Assembly: GCA_025060695.1 (NCBI GenBank)
Contig: JANXBH010000002.1
Span: 82,996 to 146,995, forward strand
Reading direction: 5' to 3'
DNA from: a candidate division WOR-3 bacterium
Lineage (GTDB): Bacteria > Hydrothermota > Hydrothermia > LBFQ01 > DSFT01
DNA: 64,000 nt
A program made the translations under genes and the position numbers. Below are positions 17,273-62,921 of this stretch, piece after piece. Below the pieces are notes generated by a model. The model worked only from the letters and a program-made list of their open reading frames with translations. It ran no database searches and was not told the DNA's origin. Within the stretch, counting starts at the first letter, position 1. Each line of letters begins with the position of its first letter.

Positions 17273-18756
17273 TATAGGAATTTTGTAATTATTTTTAAAT
17301 AATTTTCATATCTCTCTTTGTTTATTTTCCCCATGGAAACCGCTTCTACTATTGAGCATCCCTCTTCCTTGATATGAAAACAATCTCTAAATGCACACTT
17401 GTATTTACTAAACTCCCTAAAGCAATTTCTAACATCCTCCTTTTTCATGATTTCATTTAGTTCTATCTTTGAAAATCCCGGAGTATCTGCTATAAATGTT
17501 TCATTATCAATAGAATATAGTTTTACTTCAGTAGTAGTTTGGGTTCCTCTTTTTAACCTTTTGCTAACTTCACCTATTCTTATATCTACGTTAGCTAAAG
17601 CTTTAATTAGTGAACTCTTACCTACACCACTCGGTCCAGCTAACACTACCAAGTCCCCCCTTATTCTATTTAAAAGTATATCCAAGTTCATATTTTCTTT
17701 TACACTAACCGTAATCACTTCATACCCAGCATCTTTATAAATACTTACATATCTTTCTAATTCTTCATTTGGTGTAATATCTACTTTATTGAAAACTATT
17801 ATACTTGGAATATTTAAAAATTCACACGCACAAAGAATTTTATCTAACTGAATTTGAACAATTTCAGGTTCTCGTATTGTAAACATTAAAATACACTTAG
17901 ATACATTTGCAATAGGTGGTCTTGGTAATAAATTTGTCCTTTCTTTTATTTTTTCAATTACAAAAAACTCACCTTCTCTTTTCCCAACAACTATATCTCC
18001 TACATATATTTTTCTTTCAGATTTTAATAATTTTCCTCTTGGAATAGCCCTAAAGACCTTGCCTTTTGAGATTACACTTAATTTTTGACCCTCTCTTGAA
18101 ATAACAGTTCCTATACATAAGTTCTTTCTAATAATATCAAGTATTTCTTCAATAACTTCATCCTCCCTTAAATTAGTTGTGTCTATTATAAATGCATCAC
18201 GTGAAGGTCTAAGCGGTGATATTTCTCTATTTAAATCTGAAATATCTCTATTTTTTAGAATTTCCAGAATATCCTCATATGATACATTACTTTTATTTAA
18301 CTGCTTATATCTTCTCATTGCCCTTTCTTCTAATTTTGCGGTTATGTAGAACTTATAATCTGCATCTTTCAAAACAACTGTCCCAATATCCCTTCCCTCT
18401 ACTATTGCTCCATCTTTTGAAAGTTCACGTTGAATGTCAATTAAAAAATCTCTAACTTGCTTAAATTTAGAAATTTCAGATGCAAGATTTCCTACTTTTT
18501 CATCCTTAATATTATCAGTTATATCTTCTCCATTCAAGAATGTTCTTGCAGTTTTATTTATAAATTTTTGTTCTATCTTTAGATTTTTTAAAAATTCAAA
18601 ATTATTATAGTTTTGCATCTTATTCTGGATTATATAGTATGCAATCGCTCTGTATAAAGCCCCGGTTTCTACATACTTTATATTTAGAATCTCACTTAGT
18701 TTTTTTGCAATAGAACTTTTTCCCGAACCTGCTGGACCATCAATGGCAATAATCAT
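17272..18756 (-). CDS. cmk-rsgA: fused cytidylate kinase (N-terminal) and ribosome small-subunit-dependent GTPase RsgA (C-terminal)
   Basis: N-terminus 'IAIDGPAGSGKSS' (Cmk, about 210 aa). C-terminus has an OB domain, then permuted GTPase motifs 'VFNKVD', 'GPSGVGKSS' and 'DTPGF', and a Zn finger 'CAFRDCFHIKEEGC' (RsgA). One uninterrupted 494-aa ORF. Confidence 0.8.
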   Translation of the reverse strand: MIIAIDGPAGSGKSSIAKKLSEILNIKYVETGALYRAIAYYIIQNKMQNYNNFEFLKNLKIEQKFINKTARTFLNGEDITDNIKDEKVGNLASEISKFKQVRDFLIDIQRELSKDGAIVEGRDIGTVVLKDADYKFYITAKLEERAMRRYKQLNKSNVSYEDILEILKNRDISDLNREISPLRPSRDAFIIDTTNLREDEVIEEILDIIRKNLCIGTVISREGQKLSVISKGKVFRAIPRGKLLKSERKIYVGDIVVGKREGEFFVIEKIKERTNLLPRPPIANVSKCILMFTIREPEIVQIQLDKILCACEFLNIPSIIVFNKVDITPNEELERYVSIYKDAGYEVITVSVKENMNLDILLNRIRGDLVVLAGPSGVGKSSLIKALANVDIRIGEVSKRLKRGTQTTTEVKLYSIDNETFIADTPGFSKIELNEIMKKEDVRNCFREFSKYKCAFRDCFHIKEEGCSIVEAVSMGKINKERYENYLKIITKFL

Positions 18757-21008
18757 TAGTAGTATGGACCTAAATTAAAGTGAGTTTTAAATTCTTTGTA
18801 CTTTAAACTATATGCAAAATCAAATCCCATAATTCCTACTATCGGAACCTCTATTCTAAAACCTATACCAATTGCATCATAAAGGTTTCTAAAGTCTATA
18901 GTTTTAATTGCCCACCAGCTATTTCCTGTTTCGTAAAATAATGAGATATAAAATTGGTCAGCAGGTCTAATTCTTTCCTCAAATGTAAACCTAAAAAAGT
19001 GCTTTCCTCCAAGAACGCTTGCACCCACCCTTGTCCCGATTGACCTAAAATCATAACCCCTTAAGCCCAATGGTCCTACGTCTCCAAGTGCAAAATATTC
19101 ATATGGTGGAAGATCCTGCTTTGCCAATATTGAAAATATTGAACCCCAGTTTACTCTAAGAAATGATACTAACTTATCTTTGTAATTGGGAATTAGTATA
19201 ATTAGTTCGGGAATAAATTTTATATAATGCAAATTTCCACCAATTGGACCACCTGTAATAGTCCAAGGAAAACTAAATGAATATCCCTTTGAAGAATTAA
19301 ACACTCTGTCTCTTGTATCATAGCTAAAGGTTGTAGTTAGTGAGCTTGATAGAACCCTTGGATTTTTTGTCCAAAAATCATAAAATTGACTTCCTTCATA
19401 TAGTGGACTTATATCATAAACAGAAATGTACTCAAATGTATAGTCAAATTTTATTCTTGAAAATAAATTCCAAAGTCTTCTACCATAACTTATGGAAATC
19501 CCTGTATTTCTTTGATTAAAAGTAAAAAGATATCTATTTAGACTATAAATATTTATACCCACAAGAATAGGTTTTCCTCCGAACCAAGGTTCAGTAAACG
19601 AAATTTGAAAGTTTTGTCTTCTTGCTCCATACTCCGCTAAAAAACCAATAGTCCAGCCTCTTCCAAGAAAATTTGGCTGCTGTAAATTTACATTAAAAAA
19701 TAGTCCATCAAGCTGACTATAACTTGCACCTGCTCCAATTTGACCTGTAGGCTTTTCCTCAACTTTTATCTCTAAATCTACAAGACTAGAATCTTCTAAA
19801 ACTGGCTTAAAGTTTACTCCTATATTTGAAAAGTAGTTTAAATAGTAGAGATTTCTATAAGAAAGTAAGAGCAAGCTTCTATTAAAGTAGTCTCCAGGAA
19901 ATATATAAATTTCTCTTCTAATAATTTCATCCCAAGTTTTAGTATTTCCATATATATTTACAAGTCTAACTTTCACTTTCCAATTTTCCTTAATCTTAAA
20001 CTTCACATTAATTGTACTATCGTTTTTTTCTTCAATAGGTTCAACTTGTGCATATATATACCCGCTATCAGCATATAAACTACTTATATTATTTGAGCTT
20101 TCTAAAACTTTTGCCCTTGAATATAATTTAGAATTATACCAAATACCATAACCTAATCTATATCTAATTGAATTAAAGAAGTTTAGTGGCTTTTTAATAG
20201 TTATCGCATTTTCTAATTGACTATTTTTAAACTTACTGTTTCCTTCAAAATTAATACTACCAAAATAGTATTTTTTACCTTCATTTAGGAAAATTTTTAT
20301 TTTTACAAACTTTTCTTCATATTCAAACTTAAATGAATCCACTTTAAAGTCAGCAAAACCACTATTTTTATAAAAATCTTCTAATGTTATTAAGTCTTTA
20401 TCAAATTTTTCCTGCGAGAAATAGCCTCCCCTTAATATCTTTCTAATAAAATTAACCTCCTTATTTGATAGTAAATTCTTCAAGAGCCTATCAGAAAAAC
20501 TTCTATTTCCGTAAAATTCAATCTTTGATATTCTATACTTTTGTCCTACATTACCAGAGATTATTAATTCTACTTTTGAATTATCTATAAATTTTTCTCT
20601 GATTTCTATCTTTGGATTCACATAACCCTTAGTAATGTAAAATTTTTCTATTAACTTAGAAATTTTATATTTATTGTAATTACTTGCTGGAAGACCTTTA
20701 TAAAATGATATTGAATCTTCAAATTCTTTTGAAACTTTCTTAATTTCCCACTTAAAGCCATTTATTGTAGGATAGTCTGAAACTTTAAATATTAAATCAA
20801 GTGTATCCTTTTTAAACTTACCATATACTTCAAAACTATCCAAGAAACCCTTTTCATATACGTCATATAAATAGTTTCTAAAGAATGGTTCTTGAAATGG
20901 CATATTTTCCTTTAAGAGCAAATTGTAAAGAAAGCTACTTTTTGAACGATATTTTAACCCTTGAACTTCAATTTTCCCTATAAACTGACCTAAAATGATT
21001 ATTAGCAA
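18756..21008 (-). CDS. bamA: outer membrane protein assembly factor BamA (Omp85)
   Basis: 750 aa with POTRA-like repeats and a C-terminal aromatic-rich beta-barrel. Confidence 0.8.
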   Translation of the reverse strand: MLIIILGQFIGKIEVQGLKYRSKSSFLYNLLLKENMPFQEPFFRNYLYDVYEKGFLDSFEVYGKFKKDTLDLIFKVSDYPTINGFKWEIKKVSKEFEDSISFYKGLPASNYNKYKISKLIEKFYITKGYVNPKIEIREKFIDNSKVELIISGNVGQKYRISKIEFYGNRSFSDRLLKNLLSNKEVNFIRKILRGGYFSQEKFDKDLITLEDFYKNSGFADFKVDSFKFEYEEKFVKIKIFLNEGKKYYFGSINFEGNSKFKNSQLENAITIKKPLNFFNSIRYRLGYGIWYNSKLYSRAKVLESSNNISSLYADSGYIYAQVEPIEEKNDSTINVKFKIKENWKVKVRLVNIYGNTKTWDEIIRREIYIFPGDYFNRSLLLLSYRNLYYLNYFSNIGVNFKPVLEDSSLVDLEIKVEEKPTGQIGAGASYSQLDGLFFNVNLQQPNFLGRGWTIGFLAEYGARRQNFQISFTEPWFGGKPILVGINIYSLNRYLFTFNQRNTGISISYGRRLWNLFSRIKFDYTFEYISVYDISPLYEGSQFYDFWTKNPRVLSSSLTTTFSYDTRDRVFNSSKGYSFSFPWTITGGPIGGNLHYIKFIPELIILIPNYKDKLVSFLRVNWGSIFSILAKQDLPPYEYFALGDVGPLGLRGYDFRSIGTRVGASVLGGKHFFRFTFEERIRPADQFYISLFYETGNSWWAIKTIDFRNLYDAIGIGFRIEVPIVGIMGFDFAYSLKYKEFKTHFNLGPYY

Positions 21009-21040: not shown

Positions 21041-21754
21041 TTGAAAAGAAGAGAATTTTTAAAGATTATAGCTATAAGTAGTCTTTTAACCTTAATAAAA
21101 GTAAATACTTTAGAAGCAAAAAAAGGAGGTAAGAAGATGCCATTTACAGAATATAAAGCTAAGAACTATAAGGAAATAAGACCTCAACTTTGGAACATGG
21201 ATGGTATATCTCAAAAGACTATGGACGAACATATAAAACTATACGAAGGGTATGTTTCAAAATACAATGAAGCTATGAAACTCTTAGAAAATCTTAGTGA
21301 TGATGATTATACAAAGGCAAACCCTACTTATTCTACAATCAGAAGTATAAAGGTAGATATTACAAGAGCCATTGGTGGAATAAAAAATCACGAGCTATAT
21401 TTTGAACACTTAGGAGGAAAAGGCGGAAAACCAGAAGGAAAACTTCTTGAACAAATTGAAAAAGACTTTGGTAATTATGAAAGATTTTTAAAAGAATTGA
21501 GAGCTACTGCAATGGCAGCAAGAGGATGGGCATGGGTTTCATATGACCATAACTTTAAAAGGCTATTTATAGCTATAGGTGATGAGCAAAATACTTTTCC
21601 AATTTGGAACTCTACACCTATTTTAGGTATAGATGTATTTGAACATGCATATTTTATAGACTATGGAACTGCAAGGGCAAAGTATTTAGATGCATTCTTT
21701 CAAAATCTTGACTGGAAAGCTGTAGAAAAAAACTTTGAGAGCTTAAAGATATAA
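21041..21754 (+). CDS. sod: Fe/Mn superoxide dismutase with Tat-type signal peptide (alternative cytoplasmic start at about 21137)
   Basis: 'DVFEHAYFIDY' and 'GWAWV' (SOD). The TTG-start extension encodes 'KRREFLKIIAISSLL...LEA', a twin-arginine-like leader. An internal AAGGAGGT plus ATG lies at about 21137. Confidence 0.75.
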   Translation: MKRREFLKIIAISSLLTLIKVNTLEAKKGGKKMPFTEYKAKNYKEIRPQLWNMDGISQKTMDEHIKLYEGYVSKYNEAMKLLENLSDDDYTKANPTYSTIRSIKVDITRAIGGIKNHELYFEHLGGKGGKPEGKLLEQIEKDFGNYERFLKELRATAMAARGWAWVSYDHNFKRLFIAIGDEQNTFPIWNSTPILGIDVFEHAYFIDYGTARAKYLDAFFQNLDWKAVEKNFESLKI

Positions 21755-50039: not shown

Positions 50040-50075
50040 ATATTTCTTACTCTTTTAGTAGTAAATAAAATTTAG

Positions 50076-50087
50076 CTTTAAAATTTT
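50076..50087 (+). promoter_or_regulatory. CTTTAAAATTTT element about 28 nt upstream of the cbaA ATG, with an intervening AGGAGG SD
   Basis: exact 12-mer; the spacing fits a -10-like element plus a short 5' UTR. Confidence 0.5.
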
Positions 50088-50115
50088 TTTCGTTGTTTAA
50101 ACAGGAGGTTGAAAA

Positions 50116-51735
50116 ATGAAAATTGCAAGGAGCTTAAAAAACCTTCTCTTTTGGGAGTTAACTATACCAATTATTCTTTTGGTGCTCGGAATTTACCATG
50201 GTCTAATGCAAGTTCTCTATAGAGCTGGAATTATAAAATCAATGGAATTTCTCGGAATAAACTACTATCAAGGTTTGACTTTACATGGTGTAGTAAATGC
50301 GATTGCTCTTACTACATTTTTTGCAGTGGCTTTTGGAAATGCGATAATAGTATACTTCCTAAAAAGAGAGATAAATTTAAAAGTTGCATGGCTTTCATTT
50401 TGGACAATGTTAATAGGAACACTCTTAGTTGCATATGCTATACTTATTCAAAAAACAGACGTGTTATATACTTTCTATCCTCCACTTGTTGCACCACCTG
50501 CATTTTATATAGGTGCAGTTTTATTAGTAGTGGGCTCTTGGATAGCTTTTTTCAATTGGATACCCACATATTTAGCTTATAAAAAGGAGAATAAAGAAAC
50601 ACCACTTGCAGTATACGGAATCTTAACCACTTTCTTAATTTGGTTTCTTTGCACTATACCTGTTGCAATTGAAATTCTATTTATGCTACTTCCAAAATCG
50701 TTAGGTCTTGTAGAGGAAATAAATAATCTACTTGCAAGAACACTATTTTGGATGTTTGGTCATGCACTTGTATATTTTTGGTTATTACCTATATACGTGG
50801 CCTTATATGCAATGCTACCTAAAATTATAAATTCAAAGCTATTTTCGGATACATTCGCAAGAATTTCTTTTGTTCTATTTATAATATTTTCAATACCTGT
50901 TGGAGTTCATCATCAATATGCTGATCCAGGTATAGGTACATCTTGGAAACTAATTCAAGGTTTCTTAACATTCGCCGTAGCAATTCCTTCATTTATTACC
51001 GCATTTACTGTTTCAGCAACGCTTGAATATGCTGGAAGAAAAAATGGAAGCAACGGTCTTTTCGGGTGGCTATTTAAATTACCATACTTCGATAAGGAAA
51101 AGTGGCTCTTTGCATACTTCATAAGTGGTTTATTCGTATTTATAATTGGAGGTATAACAGGTATAGTCAATGCTTCATACAATGTTAATCTTGTAGTTCA
51201 TAATACATCTTATGTACCGGGCCACTTTCACCTTACAGTTGGAGGTCTTGTATTTCTTGGAATTATTGGAATAACACTATATTTAATTTCTGAAATTACA
51301 GGAAAGGAAGTAAAGTTTAAAACATTAAACTTACTATCCCCATATCTTTGGCTAATAGGTTCAATAATTTTTGGCTTCGGTATGATGGGTGGTGGTATAT
51401 TGGGTATCCCAAGAAGAACACACATGGGTTTAACCTATTCAAATCCTGATAGTCCTTTATATAATCCAGATTGGATGATATGGAATCACATATCAGTTAT
51501 AGGTGGTGTTATTATGTTCATTTCTATGGTTCTGTACTTTATTGTATTCTTTGCTACAGTATTTTCTAAAAAGGAGAGAGAAGAGAAATTAGAAATAATG
51601 GATAGTGAGGCACTTGAAAAAACAGATAATAAAGTTTTACACGAGTTTAAACTGTGGATAGCTATTGCTCTAATTCTCATAGTTATTGCATACACATTCG
51701 TATATTATGACGTATTTAGATCAACAGGAGGCTAA
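50116..51735 (+). CDS. cbaA: ba3-type (B-family) cytochrome c oxidase subunit I
   Basis: 'FWMFGHALVYFWLLPIYVALYAMLPK' matches ba3 CbaA 'WWFGHPIVYFWLLPAY'; about 13 TM helices; strong SD. Confidence 0.85.
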   Translation: MKIARSLKNLLFWELTIPIILLVLGIYHGLMQVLYRAGIIKSMEFLGINYYQGLTLHGVVNAIALTTFFAVAFGNAIIVYFLKREINLKVAWLSFWTMLIGTLLVAYAILIQKTDVLYTFYPPLVAPPAFYIGAVLLVVGSWIAFFNWIPTYLAYKKENKETPLAVYGILTTFLIWFLCTIPVAIEILFMLLPKSLGLVEEINNLLARTLFWMFGHALVYFWLLPIYVALYAMLPKIINSKLFSDTFARISFVLFIIFSIPVGVHHQYADPGIGTSWKLIQGFLTFAVAIPSFITAFTVSATLEYAGRKNGSNGLFGWLFKLPYFDKEKWLFAYFISGLFVFIIGGITGIVNASYNVNLVVHNTSYVPGHFHLTVGGLVFLGIIGITLYLISEITGKEVKFKTLNLLSPYLWLIGSIIFGFGMMGGGILGIPRRTHMGLTYSNPDSPLYNPDWMIWNHISVIGGVIMFISMVLYFIVFFATVFSKKEREEKLEIMDSEALEKTDNKVLHEFKLWIAIALILIVIAYTFVYYDVFRSTGG

Positions 51736-51736
51736 A

Positions 51737-52486
51737 ATGATATTTTTTCTTGTTTCTCACTGTCCTGCTTGCGTAGGAGCCTTAAATGTGCCAACATCAC
51801 TTTCCACTACAAGCTTTAAAAACTATGAATTTTTCATAAATTATAACTACTCTTTTGGTTCAAGTGCAGACGTAAAACTAAACGCTCATACTTTTAATTT
51901 GACATTTGTAAGAAACTTTAGTAAATTCTCTCTTATTTCAGTGCTTCCTTTTACTTTATCAAGGAGTACTCATCATTCCTCTATAGATAATATAAACACA
52001 CTTTATGGTATAGACATGGGTTTTAGGTATTTTCCTGTATATTCAAAATACTCCAAAACAAGAAGCACTCTATCTATATTAGTTTCATACAAATTTCCTA
52101 TTGGTTTTTATTCCTTAAATAATGAAAACTTAAGGATAAGTGAATACATTAGTTTTGGAACAGGATATGCATTTATTATGAATAAAATTATAAGCTATGG
52201 TGAAGCAATTTATTCAAGGGCTTTAAAAAGAGATCATATGCAGTTAGATAAAGCAAGGGGTATTCTTGGTTTTTACTACGTTTTTGAGAATTTTGAGCTT
52301 GGACCAATTTTAAATTATGTATATCAGGAGGCATTAAGTTCAGATGAAATAAGCCTTGGTTTAAGTTATGGATTTTCTGTAAATAAACTGAATATAAACC
52401 TAAATGCACATAAAAGTGTGTTTTACAAAGGTCATGGAGTGGAAAATGAGTTTTCTTTTGAAATAAGCTTAAAGGGAGGTTTTTAG
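51737..52486 (+). CDS. putative outer-membrane beta-barrel protein
   Basis: The ATG at 51737 follows immediately after the cbaA stop, preceded by GGAGG; signal-like N-terminus and C-terminal '...SLKGGF'. The longer ORF from 51686 would overlap cbaA. Confidence 0.45.
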   Translation: MIFFLVSHCPACVGALNVPTSLSTTSFKNYEFFINYNYSFGSSADVKLNAHTFNLTFVRNFSKFSLISVLPFTLSRSTHHSSIDNINTLYGIDMGFRYFPVYSKYSKTRSTLSILVSYKFPIGFYSLNNENLRISEYISFGTGYAFIMNKIISYGEAIYSRALKRDHMQLDKARGILGFYYVFENFELGPILNYVYQEALSSDEISLGLSYGFSVNKLNINLNAHKSVFYKGHGVENEFSFEISLKGGF

Positions 52487-52487
52487 C

Positions 52488-52598
52488 ATGGAAGAGAAAT
52501 TCTTCCCAAAAGGTTCAATTGCATTTATGGTGCTAATGCTTGTTTTTTATGCTGTAGTGTGGCTTTTAGTTTACATAGTAATGCTAAATAGGGGGTAA
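52488..52598 (+). CDS. cbaD: ba3-type cytochrome oxidase subunit IIa (single-TM, 36 aa), unannotated small ORF
   Basis: Translation 'MEEKFFPKGSIAFMVLMLVFYAVVWLLVYIVMLNRG' matches the recalled Thermus CbaD 'MEEKPKGALAVILVLTLTILVFWLGVYAVFFARG'; AGGGAGG SD 8 nt upstream. Confidence 0.7.
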   Translation: MEEKFFPKGSIAFMVLMLVFYAVVWLLVYIVMLNRG

Positions 52599-52601
52599 AG
52601 C

Positions 52602-53411
52602 ATGAGGTCAATACTCTGTGCATTCGATTTCACAAAACAGAGTGAAAGCGCCTTAATAACATCCTATACCATCTCAAGAGCTATGGATGCAGAATTTCAC
52701 GTTGTATACTTTATTTCTTCAGAAGTTTTAGGCTTATCTACGCCAGATGTAGAAAAGAGTGAAAAGGAAAAGAAAATAAGTGAGTTTCTTAATAGCAAAG
52801 GGATAAGTTCAAAAATTCACGTGCAAATTGCTAAAGAAGCTATACCTATTGAGATATTGAGATTAGCAAAGGAAATAGATGCAGGCATGATTGCAGTTGG
52901 AAGGTCAAGCTACGATGTTTCTGATGTAAATTTCATAGGTTCTAATACTCTTTCATTGAAAAAAATATCTGAAATTCCACTACTTATAGGAGCCTATAAG
53001 GCAAAGGATGCGTTTAAAAATATCTTAATTACTTTAAATGAAAAATCCTATTCGCTTGATCCCCTAAGTTTTGGTATCAAACTCTCTAAAAATACAGATG
53101 CAAAACTTCATTTACTGAATGTTATTGAAAGTCCGTATCCAGTCGCCTTAGAAGAAAGAGAATTACAAGAGGCAAAAGTAAGGCAGAACATAAAAGACTA
53201 CGAACCATTTTTAAAGGAAGTAGAACACTCCCTAAGTATAATCGTATCTGAAAGTGCAAGTAAGGGTATTTTAGAGTATGCTAACAATAACGAAATTGAC
53301 CTTATTATGATGTCAAGGAAAAAAAGCTTAAATCTAATAGAAAGACTGTTATATAGTTCTACAACGCTGAGGATTATGAGAGGAACCATAGTCCCAGTTA
53401 TTCTCTTTTAG
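52602..53411 (+). CDS. tandem universal stress protein (UspA family)
   Basis: two USP domains; 'GRSSYD' and 'IMMSRKK' ATP-binding-like segments. Confidence 0.7.
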   Translation: MRSILCAFDFTKQSESALITSYTISRAMDAEFHVVYFISSEVLGLSTPDVEKSEKEKKISEFLNSKGISSKIHVQIAKEAIPIEILRLAKEIDAGMIAVGRSSYDVSDVNFIGSNTLSLKKISEIPLLIGAYKAKDAFKNILITLNEKSYSLDPLSFGIKLSKNTDAKLHLLNVIESPYPVALEERELQEAKVRQNIKDYEPFLKEVEHSLSIIVSESASKGILEYANNNEIDLIMMSRKKSLNLIERLLYSSTTLRIMRGTIVPVILF

Positions 53412-53422
53412 GGGAATATCGT

Positions 53423-53803
53423 ATGGAAGGAGTAATTTCTAAAATTAGAAGCGAGGCGGAAAGGTTTATACCCGGTTTACTTGGAATTATTTTAGTTGAC
53501 GAATATGGTTTTCCGATAGCTTACTCATTTTCTACTATTCTTCAAGACCCTATAGTTGTCTCTGGTCTTCTTGCAAGTGCAACTAGTATGTTAGAAAATC
53601 TTTTAAAAGAACTATCTGATGCAAAATTTGAACTTGTATACGTTCAAGGAGATAAGATTGCACTTTTCATAGGTTCAATCAAAAATATATACCTTGGATT
53701 TATAATAACTCCATCTACTAAAGTGGGTTCAGTATTTATGGAATATAAGATTTTAAAACCTAAAATAGAAGAAACAATGAAAGGCATATTGGAGGTAGAA
53801 TAA
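53423..53803 (+). CDS. roadblock/LC7 (MglB-like) domain protein
   Basis: 'GLLGIILVDEYGFPIAYSF' plus later core; 126 aa. Confidence 0.6.
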   Translation: MEGVISKIRSEAERFIPGLLGIILVDEYGFPIAYSFSTILQDPIVVSGLLASATSMLENLLKELSDAKFELVYVQGDKIALFIGSIKNIYLGFIITPSTKVGSVFMEYKILKPKIEETMKGILEVE

Positions 53804-53804
53804 C

Positions 53805-54239
53805 ATGGAGGAAAAAATAAAAGAGTTTTTAAAAGAAGAAGGATTAGTCCTACCTAAAGAACTAATTTTTGAAGCATATAAAGAAACTCTAAAATTTGCA
53901 GGAGCTTTGTCAGGGATATTACAAGCAGGTTCTAAAAGAGCAGGTAAAAGAGCAGGTGAAATTTTTAGAAATTGGCTAAAGCAAACTAATTTTGAAACAA
54001 CTGAAATTTTGGAAACATTTTTAAGAGAGTCTGGTGTAGCAAAGGTAAAAGTCTTAAAATTAGAAAATGGCTTTAGTATTAAGATAATTGATAGCTTTTT
54101 ACTTAAAGCACATGATAAATTTGAGGTTGCCATAAGACCAATTATAGGAGCCATTGAAGGTTTTCTTGAAGGTTTTGAAGGCAAAGCTTATACATCTAAA
54201 ATTAAGAATGGGGAAATAATAGTGGAAGAAAAATTATGA
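53805..54239 (+). CDS. hypothetical protein (possibly V4R-like small-ligand-binding domain)
   Basis: size and Gly-rich 'GALSGILQAGSKRAGKRAG' segment; weak call. Confidence 0.3.
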   Translation: MEEKIKEFLKEEGLVLPKELIFEAYKETLKFAGALSGILQAGSKRAGKRAGEIFRNWLKQTNFETTEILETFLRESGVAKVKVLKLENGFSIKIIDSFLLKAHDKFEVAIRPIIGAIEGFLEGFEGKAYTSKIKNGEIIVEEKL

Positions 54240-54682
54240 ATGCAATTCACCTTCATCTAATTCTAAATCATTTTCCAACGGTTGGATTTATAATAGTTCT
54301 ATTTATTTTTCTTCACGGTTTATATAGAAAGAATGAAGAATTTAACTTTGTTTCCTTATGGTTCATAATTGTACTTTCAGTAATTACTATTTTTGTATAT
54401 CTTTCAGGAGAGGGTGCGGAGGAATTACTTAAAAACAAATTGGATAAAGAACACATAGAAATTCACGAGAGTTTTGGTAAAATTTCTTTATACCTTTCAA
54501 TTGTTCTTGGTTTACTCTCAGCATTTTCACTTATTACAAAAAAGCTTAGATGGTTAGTTTTAATTTTACTAATAATAAATATCTTGTCTTTGGGCATTAC
54601 AAGCTTTTATGGGGCACAAATAAGGCATGAAGAAATAAGGAATTTACCAATTAAAAAGGAGGTAAGAAACTATGAACGCTGA
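54236..54682 (+). CDS. His-rich 4-TM membrane protein coupled to cbaB (possible oxidase accessory subunit)
   Basis: 'HLHLILNHFP' at TM1; overlaps the cbaB start by 11 nt. Confidence 0.35.
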   Translation: MNAIHLHLILNHFPTVGFIIVLFIFLHGLYRKNEEFNFVSLWFIIVLSVITIFVYLSGEGAEELLKNKLDKEHIEIHESFGKISLYLSIVLGLLSAFSLITKKLRWLVLILLIINILSLGITSFYGAQIRHEEIRNLPIKKEVRNYER

Positions 54683-55106
54683 AAAACTTGCATTGAGTTT
54701 ATCAAGTATCTTACTTTTGCTATTTTTCGCACTAATTTTATATGGTGCATACGTAAGGGGTATAGACTTACCAACTTGCATAACTAATGTAAAGCCCTTT
54801 GATAAAGACACAGTAATTAAAATTTCTGAAAATAGATATGAGATTAGATATATCGCAAGACAATTTAGTTTCTTCCCTATGGAAGTAAAAATACCTAAGA
54901 ATTCCATAGTGGACATATACTTAACAAGTCCGGATGTTACACATGGAATGCAAATTGAAAATACTAACGTAAATCTAATGGCTATTCCCGGAGCTATTAC
55001 TTATTACAGGGTAAAGTTTGATAAACCTGGAGAATACAGAGTAGTTTGTCATGAATACTGTGGACTTGGGCATCAGAATATGATGAGCAAAATTATCGTA
55101 TATTAG
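54672..55106 (+). CDS. cbaB: ba3-type cytochrome c oxidase subunit II (CuA)
   Basis: 'TSPDVTHGMQIENTNVNLMAIPG' and CuA ligands 'CHEYCGLGHQNM' match Thermus CbaB. Confidence 0.85.
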   Translation: MNAEKLALSLSSILLLLFFALILYGAYVRGIDLPTCITNVKPFDKDTVIKISENRYEIRYIARQFSFFPMEVKIPKNSIVDIYLTSPDVTHGMQIENTNVNLMAIPGAITYYRVKFDKPGEYRVVCHEYCGLGHQNMMSKIIVY

Positions 55107-55126
55107 GGGGGTTCCCCCCTTTCTTT
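55106..55126. terminator. GC-rich hairpin GGGGGG-TT-CCCCCC followed by TTTCTTT, between convergent cbaB and kpsF
   Basis: perfect 6-bp G:C stem in an otherwise AT-rich genome, immediately after the cbaB TAG. Confidence 0.6.
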
Positions 55127-56102
55127 AGAATATACCTGCTCTTAGTATATCATGTAAATGAACTATTCCAACGAGTTTATCATTATCATCCAAAACTAAA
55201 AGGACTGTAATTTTATACTTTTCCATCAAATTCAAGGCATCAGCTACACTATCTTTATAACTTATAGTTTTTGGTGATGTTGTCATTGCAAGTTTTACAC
55301 TACCATTATTTAAATCACCTCTTCTCTCCACGTATCTTCTTAAATCTCCATCTGTTATAATACCTACAAGTTTTCCATCTCTATCTAATACTGCGGTTGC
55401 CCCAAAACCCTTACTTGTAATTTCTATAATAGCATCCCTTATACTCATATCCTCACGTACAATAGGTATTTTTTCACCTTTATGCATTATCTCATAAACT
55501 TTTTTTAATCTTTTCCCTATTATGCCACCAGGATGTAGTTTTGCAAATTGCTCCTTTGAAAAACCTTTCATTTCCATTAGAACTACAGCTATTGCATCAC
55601 CAAGTATCATTTGTGCAGTTGTTGAAGAGGTTGGGGATAAGTTAAATGGACATGCTTCTCTTTTAACTTTTATATCTATCGCAACATCACTGTTTTTTGC
55701 TATAGTTGACTCAGGATTTCCTGTTATACAAATTATAGGAACTTTTAAAAATTTAATATATGGGATGATATTTATAATTTCATCGGTTTCTCCGCTATTT
55801 GAAAGAATTATTATAACATCATTTCTATCAATCATTCCTAAATCACCATGAACTGCCTCTGACGGATGTAAAAAGATAGAAGGCGTTCCTGTACTTGATA
55901 AGGTTGAAGAGATTTTCCTTGCAACATGACCAGATTTTCCTATACCGATTAAAATTACCTTACCTTTGCAACTACCTAAAATTTCTATAGCCTTTACAAA
56001 TGAACTATTCAAACTTTCCTTTAGGTTAATTATAGTTTCTAATTCTATATCAATAACTTTCTTTGCAATTTCTATAATACTACTATCATTCAATAACTTC
56101 AT
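55125..56102 (-). CDS. kpsF: arabinose-5-phosphate isomerase (SIS + tandem CBS)
   Basis: 'GKVILIGIGKSGHVARKI' and 'ITGNPEST' (SIS), with C-terminal CBS pairs. Confidence 0.8.
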   Translation of the reverse strand: MKLLNDSSIIEIAKKVIDIELETIINLKESLNSSFVKAIEILGSCKGKVILIGIGKSGHVARKISSTLSSTGTPSIFLHPSEAVHGDLGMIDRNDVIIILSNSGETDEIINIIPYIKFLKVPIICITGNPESTIAKNSDVAIDIKVKREACPFNLSPTSSTTAQMILGDAIAVVLMEMKGFSKEQFAKLHPGGIIGKRLKKVYEIMHKGEKIPIVREDMSIRDAIIEITSKGFGATAVLDRDGKLVGIITDGDLRRYVERRGDLNNGSVKLAMTTSPKTISYKDSVADALNLMEKYKITVLLVLDDNDKLVGIVHLHDILRAGIF

Positions 56103-61493: not shown

Positions 61494-62104
61494 AGAGTAT
61501 TATAAAAGATTGGCAAGAAAATAACTATAAAATCATAGGAAATATAAGGAAAGTAATAAAAGATGAGAAAATAATTAATGCCTTTGAAAAAATTCCAAGA
61601 AATCTTTTTGTTGAAAATGAACCATTTGAAGATAAGGCGGTTCACCTGAAATTAAATCAAACATCTTCTCAGCCAAGCTTAATAGCAAAGATGCTTGAAC
61701 TACTTGAAATTAAACCTACAGATACTATCCTTGAAATTGGTACAGGAAGCGGTTATTTAACAGCTATTTTATGTGAAATTTCTCATTTTGTTTATTCTAT
61801 TGATATATTTAGTGAGTTCATAGAAGAAACGGACAAAAAGTTAAAACTATTAGGTTATAAGAACTATAAACTACTTGTAAGAGACGGAAATTATGGTTTA
61901 GCAGAATTTTCACCGTATGAAAAAATAATAGCTTCCGCATATTTTGAAAGTATTCCGACGGCATTGTTAGAGCAGTTAACTATTGATGGTATATTAGTTT
62001 TACCTGTTGGTAATAAACAATTGCAATATATTTACAAGGTTATAAAAAAAGAAGCTGTTTTATTTGTACCTATTGTTCCTTTTGATAAACAAGGTCAAAA
62101 CTAA
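61490..62104 (+). CDS. pcm: protein-L-isoaspartate O-methyltransferase; no canonical start for the conserved N-terminal about 65 codons (candidate ATA/ATT start after AGGAGG)
   Basis: Between 61496 and 61690 the frame reads '...IPRNLFVENEPFEDKAVHLKLNQTSSQPSLIAKMLELL...EIGTGSGY', continuous into the ORF-track ATG at 61691. The frame opens at 61469 with no ATG, GTG or TTG. Confidence 0.6.
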   Translation: MESIIKDWQENNYKIIGNIRKVIKDEKIINAFEKIPRNLFVENEPFEDKAVHLKLNQTSSQPSLIAKMLELLEIKPTDTILEIGTGSGYLTAILCEISHFVYSIDIFSEFIEETDKKLKLLGYKNYKLLVRDGNYGLAEFSPYEKIIASAYFESIPTALLEQLTIDGILVLPVGNKQLQYIYKVIKKEAVLFVPIVPFDKQGQN

Positions 62105-62555
62105 TATTTACAGTATCAGAAACCTCTATAAATCCAAACTTTGGACGAGTTATTTGAAAGTCCGAAAGTAAAATCTTAAACTCACCACTAACAAATGTGA
62201 AGTTATTTTCAAATTTCATATTTATTGGGACAGATATATATCTTTCTATACCTGAGATTTTCAATTTTCCAAAAATTGCATTTTTTACTAAACTATCTGG
62301 GAAAAATTCAATATACTCATATTTATCCGCTTTTATTGACCTATACATTTGAGCATCCCTAATACCATTTCCTGTTTTTAATGACTTTGAAACCACTCTT
62401 ACATAACCTGAAATATAAATACTATCGTATTGAATTTTTGAATCTATACTATTTGCTATACCGTTTACTTGATGAAGTGTAGCATTAAGAAAAAATGAAA
62501 TTTTTGATTTTGCATTAAGAAGAGTATAGGTTTGACTAATAAAAAAAATTAGCAT
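62070..62555 (-). CDS. YceI-like domain protein
   Basis: signal peptide plus beta-barrel lipid-binding-like pattern. Confidence 0.5.
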   Translation of the reverse strand: MLIFFISQTYTLLNAKSKISFFLNATLHQVNGIANSIDSKIQYDSIYISGYVRVVSKSLKTGNGIRDAQMYRSIKADKYEYIEFFPDSLVKNAIFGKLKISGIERYISVPINMKFENNFTFVSGEFKILLSDFQITRPKFGFIEVSDTVNISFDLVYQKEQ

Positions 62556-62921
62556 TTATTGTATATATAAATATCTTCCTGCTTGACCACCGGGATAATG
62601 ACAAGCTCTACAACCATTAGCATTACTCACTGATACATTCATCTGTAAGTATGAAGAACCATCTATTTTCTCAATCCTTGCCTGATAAGGAAAACATATA
62701 TTACCTACTATATTAAATCTTCCAAGTGTATCAGTTGTATCGGAAAATATATTGTCTTTAGCATCTATTACTTTTACAACTACATTCTTTGCCCTTTTAC
62801 TATAAGATGAGTCAATTGGGTCGGTCGACACAAAGTATTCAAAACTTACACTTTGACAATTGTCAGATGACTGTCTTGAGCAAGCAAGAAAAAATACAAA
62901 AAATAGAAAAATCCTATGCAT
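62556..62921 (-). CDS. small lipoprotein with a CxxCH haem-c binding motif
   Basis: lipobox 'FLAC'; 'NGCRACHYPGG'. Confidence 0.45.
   Translation of the reverse strand: MHRIFLFFVFFLACSRQSSDNCQSVSFEYFVSTDPIDSSYSKRAKNVVVKVIDAKDNIFSDTTDTLGRFNIVGNICFPYQARIEKIDGSSYLQMNVSVSNANGCRACHYPGGQAGRYLYIQ

Follow-up and report, generated by a model that had tools for sequence, protein, structure and literature searches.

Introduction

When the subunit genes of a terminal oxidase stand apart, with other genes between them, is the locus a disrupted copy or a working operon of unusual order? The question is raised by a stretch of 64,000 nt from a candidate division WOR-3 bacterium (assembly GCA_025060695.1, contig JANXBH010000002.1, positions 82,996–146,995 of the forward strand), below called the window. 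It carries genes for subunits I, IIa and II of a ba3-type cytochrome oxidase, separated by several other genes. An earlier note on this DNA, made from its letters without database searches, had described the subunits as dispersed and the intervening genes as foreign insertions. We find it likely that positions 50040–55127 of the window form a single operon for a functional B-family oxidase together with a fixed, lineage-specific accessory cassette, the order being permuted from IIa-II-I to I-IIa-...-II. The new part is this operon variant with its accessory genes; the enzyme family itself is well known.

Subunits I and II

Subunit I (CbaA/CoxA2-type, 539 amino acids (aa); 50116–51735, + strand) is a B-family haem-copper O2 reductase subunit. 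It matches PF00115 in Pfam with E 1.5e-88. Against PDB chain sequences it matches Aquifex aeolicus 7DEG_A (E 6.4e-183) and Thermus ba3 1EHK_A (E 1.6e-109), with A-family subunit I chains reaching just 1e-8 to 1e-11. The B-family signature FGHALVYFWLLP occupies residues 214–225. Ligand positions were mapped through the 7DEG alignment and Aquifex numbering (PMC3128077), and all are there: H57 and H372 for haem b, H370 for haem a3, and H216, H265 and H266 for CuB. The cross-link tyrosine of the H-x3-Y motif in helix VI is Y220. The B-type K-path analogue is kept (Y220, Y231, S292 and T295, corresponding to Aquifex Y226, Y237, S300 and T303), and the A-type D-channel glutamate (GHPEV) is absent, the motif reading GHALVY. 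Three NCBI records of metagenome-assembled genomes (MAGs) name the product of 50116–51735 ‘cbb3-type cytochrome c oxidase subunit I’. This label is wrong for a B-family subunit I.

Subunit II (CbaB/CoxB2-type, 144 aa; 54672–55106, +) is recognized by PF00116/TIGR02866. It consists of one transmembrane (TM) helix, its single N-terminal hydrophobic segment, and a CuA cupredoxin domain. In the PDB it matches 7DEG_B with E 6.8e-47 and Thermus 1EHK_B with E 3.5e-27. The CuA ligands are complete (H91, C126, C130, H134 and M137), and the CuA motif CHEYCGLGHQNM covers residues 126–137.

Subunit IIa

Subunit IIa (CbaD-type, 36 aa, one TM helix) is encoded at 52488–52598 (+). This open reading frame (ORF) encodes MEEKFFPKGSIAFMVLMLVFYAVVWLLVYIVMLNRG, is preceded by AAGGGAGG and starts 1 nt past the stop of the preceding gene. 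The earlier note had proposed it as a genuine but unannotated IIa that resembles Thermus IIa at MEEK-PKG, W..VY and RG. Alignment bears out the resemblance, and the similarity to the CbaD family is significant: phmmer matches the peptide to Aquifex 7DEG_C with E 5.9e-9 and to Thermus 1XME_C with E 0.011. The Pfam CoxIIa model (PF08113) scores 19.7 bits, slightly below its gathering cut-off of 20.7. We nevertheless consider the identity decisive because the PDB match is joined by conservation across about 60 loci. Homologous ORFs adjoin ba3 genes in about 60 fetched loci from several phyla, and the core F-x-P-[KRS]-G-[AST]...W...Y...R-[GS] is kept throughout 60 aligned sequences.

A survey by Prunetti in 2011 found IIa to be widespread in B-type oxidases and frequently unannotated, with a P-x1-3-G-[T/A] motif and a conserved tryptophan as hallmarks (PMC3128077). 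The corresponding residues in the window are P7-K-G9-S10 (serine replacing threonine or alanine) and W24, with a C-terminal R-G. By these sequence features we regard the 36-codon ORF as a true subunit IIa homologue. The exact peptide occurs in the protein collection solely as a Logan gene call, made in an assembly that has an identical contig. In the NCBI accession numbering of the three MAGs, subunit I ends in ...832 and the universal stress protein (USP) in ...834, so one protein fits between them; this slot is taken as the outer membrane protein-like (OMP-like) gene, and IIa is therefore unannotated in the NCBI records.

In all cases of the survey IIa is the gene immediately ahead of subunit II (PMC3128077). 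In the window it comes after coxI and the OMP-like gene, and four genes (2073 nt) stand between it and coxII. This is a difference of gene context, not of the protein.

Comparison with known ba3 oxidases

The best PDB entry for all three subunits is one structure, the ba3-type cytochrome c/quinol oxidase of Aquifex aeolicus, CoxA2-CoxB2-IIa (PDB 7DEG; PMC3128077, PMC8251803), with Thermus ba3 second. The Aquifex enzyme has the same three subunits, and the haem, CuB, CuA and K-path residues are all common to both. Its IIa gene was likewise overlooked by genome annotation. The gene order differs: in Aquifex IIa lies directly upstream of coxB2, whereas in the window subunit I comes first and IIa and II are separated. 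The proteins differ at several points as well. Aquifex IIa binds quinol through Glu39, described as unique to Aquifex, which is Asn34 in the window IIa. Of the Aquifex dimer residues, Y328 is replaced by F, R337 is deleted and E339 is replaced by D in the window subunit I, which also stops ~45 residues short of the end of the Aquifex chain. Because Glu39 and these dimer-interface residues are not conserved, we rejected Aquifex-style direct quinol oxidation as a prediction. Thermus thermophilus ba3 (PDB 1EHK/1XME) is of the same family, with the same subunits and the common IIa pattern MEEK-PKG..W..VY..RG, but is more distant by the subunit I E-values given above. Its genes cbaD-cbaB-cbaA are contiguous in the order IIa-II-I and have no embedded accessory genes.

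The genes are predicted to encode a complete three-subunit B-family (ba3-type) haem-copper oxygen reductase with intact catalytic residues. The assignment to this family in the earlier note is thus upheld by Pfam, the PDB matches, the signature and the ligands, and its coordinates for the ORFs of subunits I, IIa and II are all exact. By analogy with the Aquifex and Thermus homologues, electrons would enter at the periplasmic CuA of subunit II and, by way of the low-spin haem b, reach haem a3–CuB of subunit I, where O2 would be reduced. Protons would move via the K-path analogue. The single helix of IIa would pack in the position that the first subunit II helix has in A-type enzymes.

Structure of the probable operon

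Eight genes follow one another on the forward strand: subunit I, the OMP-like gene, IIa, a tandem USP, a Roadblock/LC7 protein, a V4R-like protein, a DUF2231 protein and subunit II. The earlier note had given the same order, calling the V4R-like protein ‘hypothetical’ and the DUF2231 protein ‘4-TM’. Successive intergenic distances are 1, 1, 3, 11, 1, -4 and -11 nt, and each of the eight genes has a Shine-Dalgarno (SD)-like site ahead of it. Upstream of subunit I lies an AT-rich intergenic leader of 76 nt (50040–50115, +), presumed from its position to be the promoter region, with the SD sequence AGGAGG at 50104–50109. An intrinsic terminator, AGGGGGGTTCCCCCCT followed by TTCTTT (55105–55127, +), lies at the other end, its hairpin (55105–55120) overlapping the stop codon of coxII. 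Between 49800 and 55400 there is no other strong G+C-rich hairpin with a T tract, and the next gene 3′ of the terminator is on the opposite strand. Regulatory RNAs were looked for, and no Rfam match was found in or around the operon at E ≤ 1.

Given the tight spacing, the SD sites, the single terminator and promoter-like matches that are no commoner than in shuffled sequence, co-transcription is the most economical reading. The subunits can hardly be called dispersed, since the eight genes lie 1–11 nt apart or overlap, each with its SD site, ahead of one terminator.

The ribosome-binding regions of coxI (50100–50114) and of the OMP-like gene (51723–51737) are near-identical (AACAGGAGGTTGAAA and AACAGGAGGCTAAAA), which may be chance or a trace of rearrangement. 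A 143-aa antisense ORF (53753–54184, −) runs across the V4R-like gene. Only 37 aa of it are matched in a relative (locus L002), and it is most likely a shadow ORF of AT-rich sequence.

Gene order across relatives

Comparison of locus architecture in related genomes confirmed that the window departs from the canonical cbaD-cbaB-cbaA order. A contiguous IIa-II-I arrangement is found in about 45 genomes of Balneolaceae, Kapabacteria/Chlorobiota, Verrucomicrobiota, Bacteroidota and other WOR-3. In the ‘Candidatus Hydrothermia’ clade, to which the window belongs, subunit I comes first in every locus, with IIa following. A neighbour-joining tree of subunit I recovers this I-first clade as monophyletic.

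Within the clade, the USP, Roadblock plus V4R-like, DUF2231 and OMP-like genes occur in at least nine different orders. The simplest loci read I-IIa-II (L064) and I-IIa-II-USP (L004). In L002 the order is I-IIa-USP-II-Roadblock-V4R-OMP, and in L003 and L076 it is I-IIa-USP-Roadblock-V4R-DUF2231-II-OMP. L073 and L075 have I-IIa-USP-DUF2231-II-OMP. Four loci (L067, L069, L071 and L078) have I-IIa-DUF981-USP-DUF2231-II-OMP; L005 and L077 share the order of these DUF981-bearing loci, plus an extra 336-aa gene inside the cluster, and L068 has I-IIa-DUF981(partial)-USP-II-OMP. The window and L079 alike read I-OMP-IIa-USP-Roadblock-V4R-DUF2231-II. Thus the clade has its own permutation of the ba3 operon and a linked accessory set that has been repeatedly reshuffled, and in the window and its sister species the OMP-like gene has left the 3′ end for a place between coxI and IIa.

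Profile searches of all fetched loci show the V4R-like, DUF2231-like and OMP-like families to be confined to the clusters of this clade, save for loci fetched via those proteins. In the fetched loci, no canonical operon of another phylum has any of the three within 10 kb of it.

Relatives also carry genes that the window lacks at this locus. A DUF981 membrane protein (PF06168, E 1.6e-34) is encoded between IIa and USP in L005 (11738–12283), L067, L069, L071 and L078; it is absent from the window and is a further clade-specific member of the cassette. In L064 (3424–5177) and L065 (1130–3249), a second, distant haem-copper oxidase (subunit I ~30% identical) adjoins the ba3 genes. The OMP-like gene in these two loci is divergent or several kb off.

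The ratio of non-synonymous to synonymous substitution rates (dN/dS) was computed against the sister species L079. L079 and L080, both of the sister species, show 83–91% nucleotide identity per gene, carry the eight genes in identical order and share the downstream flank. Selection on all eight genes is purifying. The lowest value is that of subunit II (0.031), followed by subunit I (0.076), USP and Roadblock (0.079 each), the V4R-like gene (0.082), DUF2231 (0.11), the OMP-like gene (0.21) and IIa (0.30, from 10 substitutions only).

The DUF2231 protein

The gene directly ahead of coxII (54236–54682, +) encodes a DUF2231-like four-helix membrane protein of 148 aa. Its match to PF09990 is marginal (E 6.8e-6; 26.6 bits against a cut-off of 26.4), and orthologues score 20.4–20.8 bits. 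It shares with the family the four TM helices and the N-terminal H-x-H-x4-H-F-P signature. To our knowledge the family has no known function. The earlier note had suggested an accessory or assembly subunit and proposed DUF420 and CtaM-like families for comparison. The accessory role is consistent with the conserved overlap with coxII, which is 11 nt in the window; the family proposal did not stand, as neither Pfam nor NCBIfam gave a DUF420 match at E ≤ 1 and there is no similarity to CtaM/DUF420.

At its 5′ end the gene shares 4 nt with the V4R-like gene, and its overlap or abutment with coxII recurs in every DUF2231-bearing relative save L077. Twelve residues are invariant in six homologues down to 34% identity (H5, H7, N11, H12, F13, P14, E62, H77, E78, H131, E133 and R135). 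An AlphaFold 2 model (predicted local distance difference test (pLDDT) 86.2) has four long helices, and fold searches with it returned generic four-helix bundles only. The short loops at residues 29–35 and 100–105 are rich in lysine and arginine, which by the positive-inside rule would put the five histidines (H5, H7, H12, H77 and H131) on the outer face; the histidine cluster, together with the invariant N11, is accordingly predicted to face outward.

DUF2231 is absent from L004, L064 and L068, and L002 has only a distant paralogue 8 kb off; it is therefore not a core subunit. Distant homologues occur in unrelated contexts with no oxidase seen near them and offer no clue to function, and the oxidase association is specific to the Hydrothermia clade. 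The gene arrangement suggests that the protein is probably translationally coupled to coxII and acts as a biogenesis or redox helper of subunit II, for which metal or haem handling or electron transfer would be plausible.

USP, Roadblock and V4R-like proteins

The tandem USP (269 aa; 52602–53411, +) has two PF00582 domains (E 9.8e-23). It is present in 17 of the 19 related clusters with visible gene content, lying between IIa and II in 16 and after II in L004, and is the most constant member of the cassette.

The Roadblock/LC7 (MglB-like) domain protein (126 aa; 53423–53803, +) matches PF03259 with E 1.8e-5 (24.8 bits against a cut-off of 23; orthologues 24.3 and 27.4 bits). The next gene (53805–54239, +) encodes the 144-aa protein formerly called hypothetical, which is a divergent V4R-fold protein, as identified from its AlphaFold model (pLDDT 82.8) and from relatives bearing PF02830. 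Among 1.84 billion cluster representatives, a profile search picked out only 20 relatives, and 8 of the 10 scanned bear PF02830 V4R. Compared with known V4R and Roadblock proteins (the PoxR/DmpR sensory domain, MJ1460, TRAPP Bet3), the window protein falls below Pfam detection, contains no cysteine, comes from a very small subfamily and has its gene inside a respiratory operon, with no GTPase partner nearby.

The V4R-like gene always follows the Roadblock gene, the oxidase-less loci L057 and L058 included. No oxidase was seen near the distant V4R-like homologues, and their context gives no functional clue. We infer that Roadblock and the V4R-like protein form a cytoplasmic small-molecule-sensing or regulatory pair; with USP, they are probably cytoplasmic proteins of sensing or regulation.

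In L057 (6668–8444) and L058 (6709–8444), two more V4R-like paralogues precede the Roadblock and V4R-like pair. They match the V4R-like family profile with E 1e-16 to 1e-23 and make up a V4R-V4R-Roadblock-V4R module in another genome lineage.

The OMP-like protein

The second gene of the operon (51737–52486, +) encodes a clade-restricted protein of 249 aa, with its ATG at 51737 and AGGAGG upstream. The protein has an invariant N-terminal H-C-P-A-C-x-G-x-L-N-x-P, is rich in Y, F, S, N and G, and ends in a conserved GGF. There is no TM helix, and the N-terminus, formed by the HCPAC motif, is unlike a typical signal peptide. No match was found in Pfam, NCBIfam or the PDB, including a PDB profile search. 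Only about 20 homologues were found, all in the Hydrothermia clade and nearly all adjoining ba3 genes. Elsewhere in the window lie genes for BamA (POTRA and Omp85; 18756–21008, −) and an Fe/Mn superoxide dismutase (21041–21754, +). The presence of BamA means that an outer membrane exists, and the two together make the host a diderm equipped for oxygen exposure.

The extra 336-aa gene of two relatives (L005, 13959–14969; L077, 4387–5397) is not in the window. Its protein begins MLILIISIPAFARMYGFSCQTCHYSYPKLNPFG, ends GGIDYAF and carries the motif PAFARMY-GFS-CQTCH-YSY-PKL, which matches the Cyc2 consensus. According to Keffer et al., that consensus, unique to Cyc2, is xPxFAR[Q/K][T/Y] before CxxCH with PxL four residues after, and a Cyc2 protein must also have at least 365 aa and a porin of 16 strands (PMC8406198). 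At 336 aa, the protein of the two relatives falls short of the FeGenie length filter for Cyc2. It looks like a short Cyc2-like fused cytochrome-porin, and its motif hints at iron oxidation linked to the ba3 oxidase in some Hydrothermia.

We rejected a Cyc2 identity for the window OMP-like protein: it has no PxFAR, and its CxxC lacks the haem-ligating histidine. Neither BLASTP nor hhalign detected homology between it and the 336-aa protein, the one of the two that bears the Cyc2 consensus. In the rus operon of Acidithiobacillus ferrooxidans, cyc2-cyc1-orf-coxBACD-rus, an outer-membrane protein gene stands with terminal oxidase genes, as the putative outer-membrane gene does here; the rus operon encodes an A-type aa3 oxidase.

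Host lineage and neighbouring genes

The nearest genomes are WOR-3/‘Candidatus Hydrothermia’ MAGs with subunit I 83–84% identical, and the host is a low-G+C thermophilic hot-spring bacterium of this lineage (Pyropristinus-type). The class is described as the only WOR-3 group with both a cytochrome c oxidase and a V-type ATPase, and its sole cultured member, isolate sy37, is a thermophilic microaerophile respiring O2 (PMC12285271). sy37 has been reported to lack complex III (PMC12542636). A Yellowstone study placed the low-G+C ‘Thermoproauctor’ (27.4% G+C) and Caldipriscus in the same lineage and modelled their oxidases on Thermus ba3 (PMC11696919). IIa and the operon structure are mentioned in none of these three papers.

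An isolated gene for V-type ATPase subunit F (PF01990; 57387–57713, −) lies between thymidine phosphorylase and dehydrogenase genes. It fits the V-type ATPase reported for the class and has no neighbouring ATPase subunits here. No genes of haem A synthesis were seen within the window. The only ORF of at least 70 aa with a CxxCH motif in the window (62556–62921, −) encodes a putative lipoprotein of 121 aa (MHRIFLFFVFFLAC...), possibly a small c-type cytochrome, whose one CxxCH (CRACH) is at the C-terminus. A YceI-like gene (62070–62555) adjoins it.

Alternative explanations

The unusual order could mean that horizontally acquired or mobile genes split the oxidase, leaving a disrupted or decaying copy with the working enzyme elsewhere. 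It is indeed unlike the contiguous IIa-II-I of the ~45 genomes and every case of the Prunetti survey (PMC3128077), and the genes flanking the cluster vary from genome to genome among the relatives, which points to a rearrangement-prone region. However, the insertion of foreign genes supposed in the earlier note finds no support here. The G+C content of the intervening genes is 29–34%, against 29.6% for the window; flanking repeats go no further than short AT-rich chance matches; and among the eight genes there is no match to a transposase, integrase or other mobility-protein family. A mobile-element or foreign origin was rejected on these grounds. The intervening genes are, moreover, kept across the clade, recurring in some 20 related clusters, and do not accompany canonical operons elsewhere, so they are conserved partners rather than foreign insertions. 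Nor do the copies look like remnants: all ligands are intact, dN/dS is 0.03–0.30 for each gene, and no paralogue of subunit I or II exists within the window. Ligands, selection and clade-wide conservation together indicate a working enzyme, and we hold a split or decaying copy to be very improbable. Still further from credible is an artefact of assembly or binning. The source is a MAG, but the identical arrangement is found in three NCBI MAGs labelled ‘candidate division WOR-3 bacterium’ and in an independent Logan assembly, the sister species shows the same order in other sequencing runs, and some 20 further contigs have related arrangements.

A bolder possibility concerns the cassette itself. 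The ba3 operon may have recruited a new, dedicated envelope module, in which the DUF2231 protein and the outer-membrane protein with its N-terminal cysteines (in some relatives with the Cyc2-like protein) would bring electrons, e.g. from Fe2+, or copper or haem to the CuA-bearing subunit II, under the control of USP and Roadblock-V4R. The overlap of DUF2231 with coxII almost everywhere it is present, its five invariant histidines predicted on the outer face, the abutment of the OMP-like gene on ba3 genes in most loci and the in-cluster protein with PxFAR..CxxCH..PxL in two relatives all speak for such a module, as does the reported lack of complex III in the cultured relative (PMC12542636). 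Against it, the OMP-like protein has no homology to Cyc2 or any porin, its beta-amphipathicity (z 0.79) is no different from that of shuffled sequence, and its CxxC is without a haem-ligating histidine. The fold matches of DUF2231 are unspecific, the components are dispensable in some relatives, and iron oxidation was unseen in Yellowstone communities containing the lineage (PMC11696919). On balance we think such a module unlikely.

A single operon with a fixed accessory cassette remains the reading that we prefer, and several points weigh against it. No sigma-70 consensus match is listed in the 76-nt leader. We infer both the co-transcription of the eight genes, from spacing alone, and the functions of the accessory proteins. 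DUF2231, Roadblock plus V4R and the OMP-like gene are each absent from some relatives that keep the oxidase (L002, L004, L064, L068), so the core enzyme can do without them. The Roadblock-V4R pair and distant homologues of DUF2231 also turn up away from any oxidase. The linkage of the accessory genes could thus be partly historical rather than functional. On the single-operon reading that we favour, a variable cassette of lineage-specific accessory genes would have become fixed inside the operon; USP, Roadblock and V4R would serve in sensing or regulation, DUF2231 as a helper of subunit II and the OMP-like protein possibly at the outer membrane.

Implications

The call of a complete three-subunit B-family oxidase corrects the inferred respiratory physiology of the WOR-3/Hydrothermia (Pyropristinus) thermophiles, a lineage discussed as early-branching aerobes. 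Published reconstructions name the oxidase only as ‘nearly complete’ or as ‘aa3-type’/‘type 1’. The Hydrothermia clade also indicates that the rule of IIa lying directly upstream of II can be broken without loss of the enzyme, and searches that seek IIa solely upstream of coxB would miss the IIa of the window.

We know of few dedicated factors for ba3 oxidases. The conserved but shuffled set of USP, Roadblock plus V4R, DUF2231 and the protein with the cysteine motif, joined in relatives by DUF981 and the Cyc2-like protein, supplies candidates for ba3 regulation, biogenesis or electron supply. Should the envelope module prove true, its members would be previously unknown accessory subunits or biogenesis factors for B-family oxidases.

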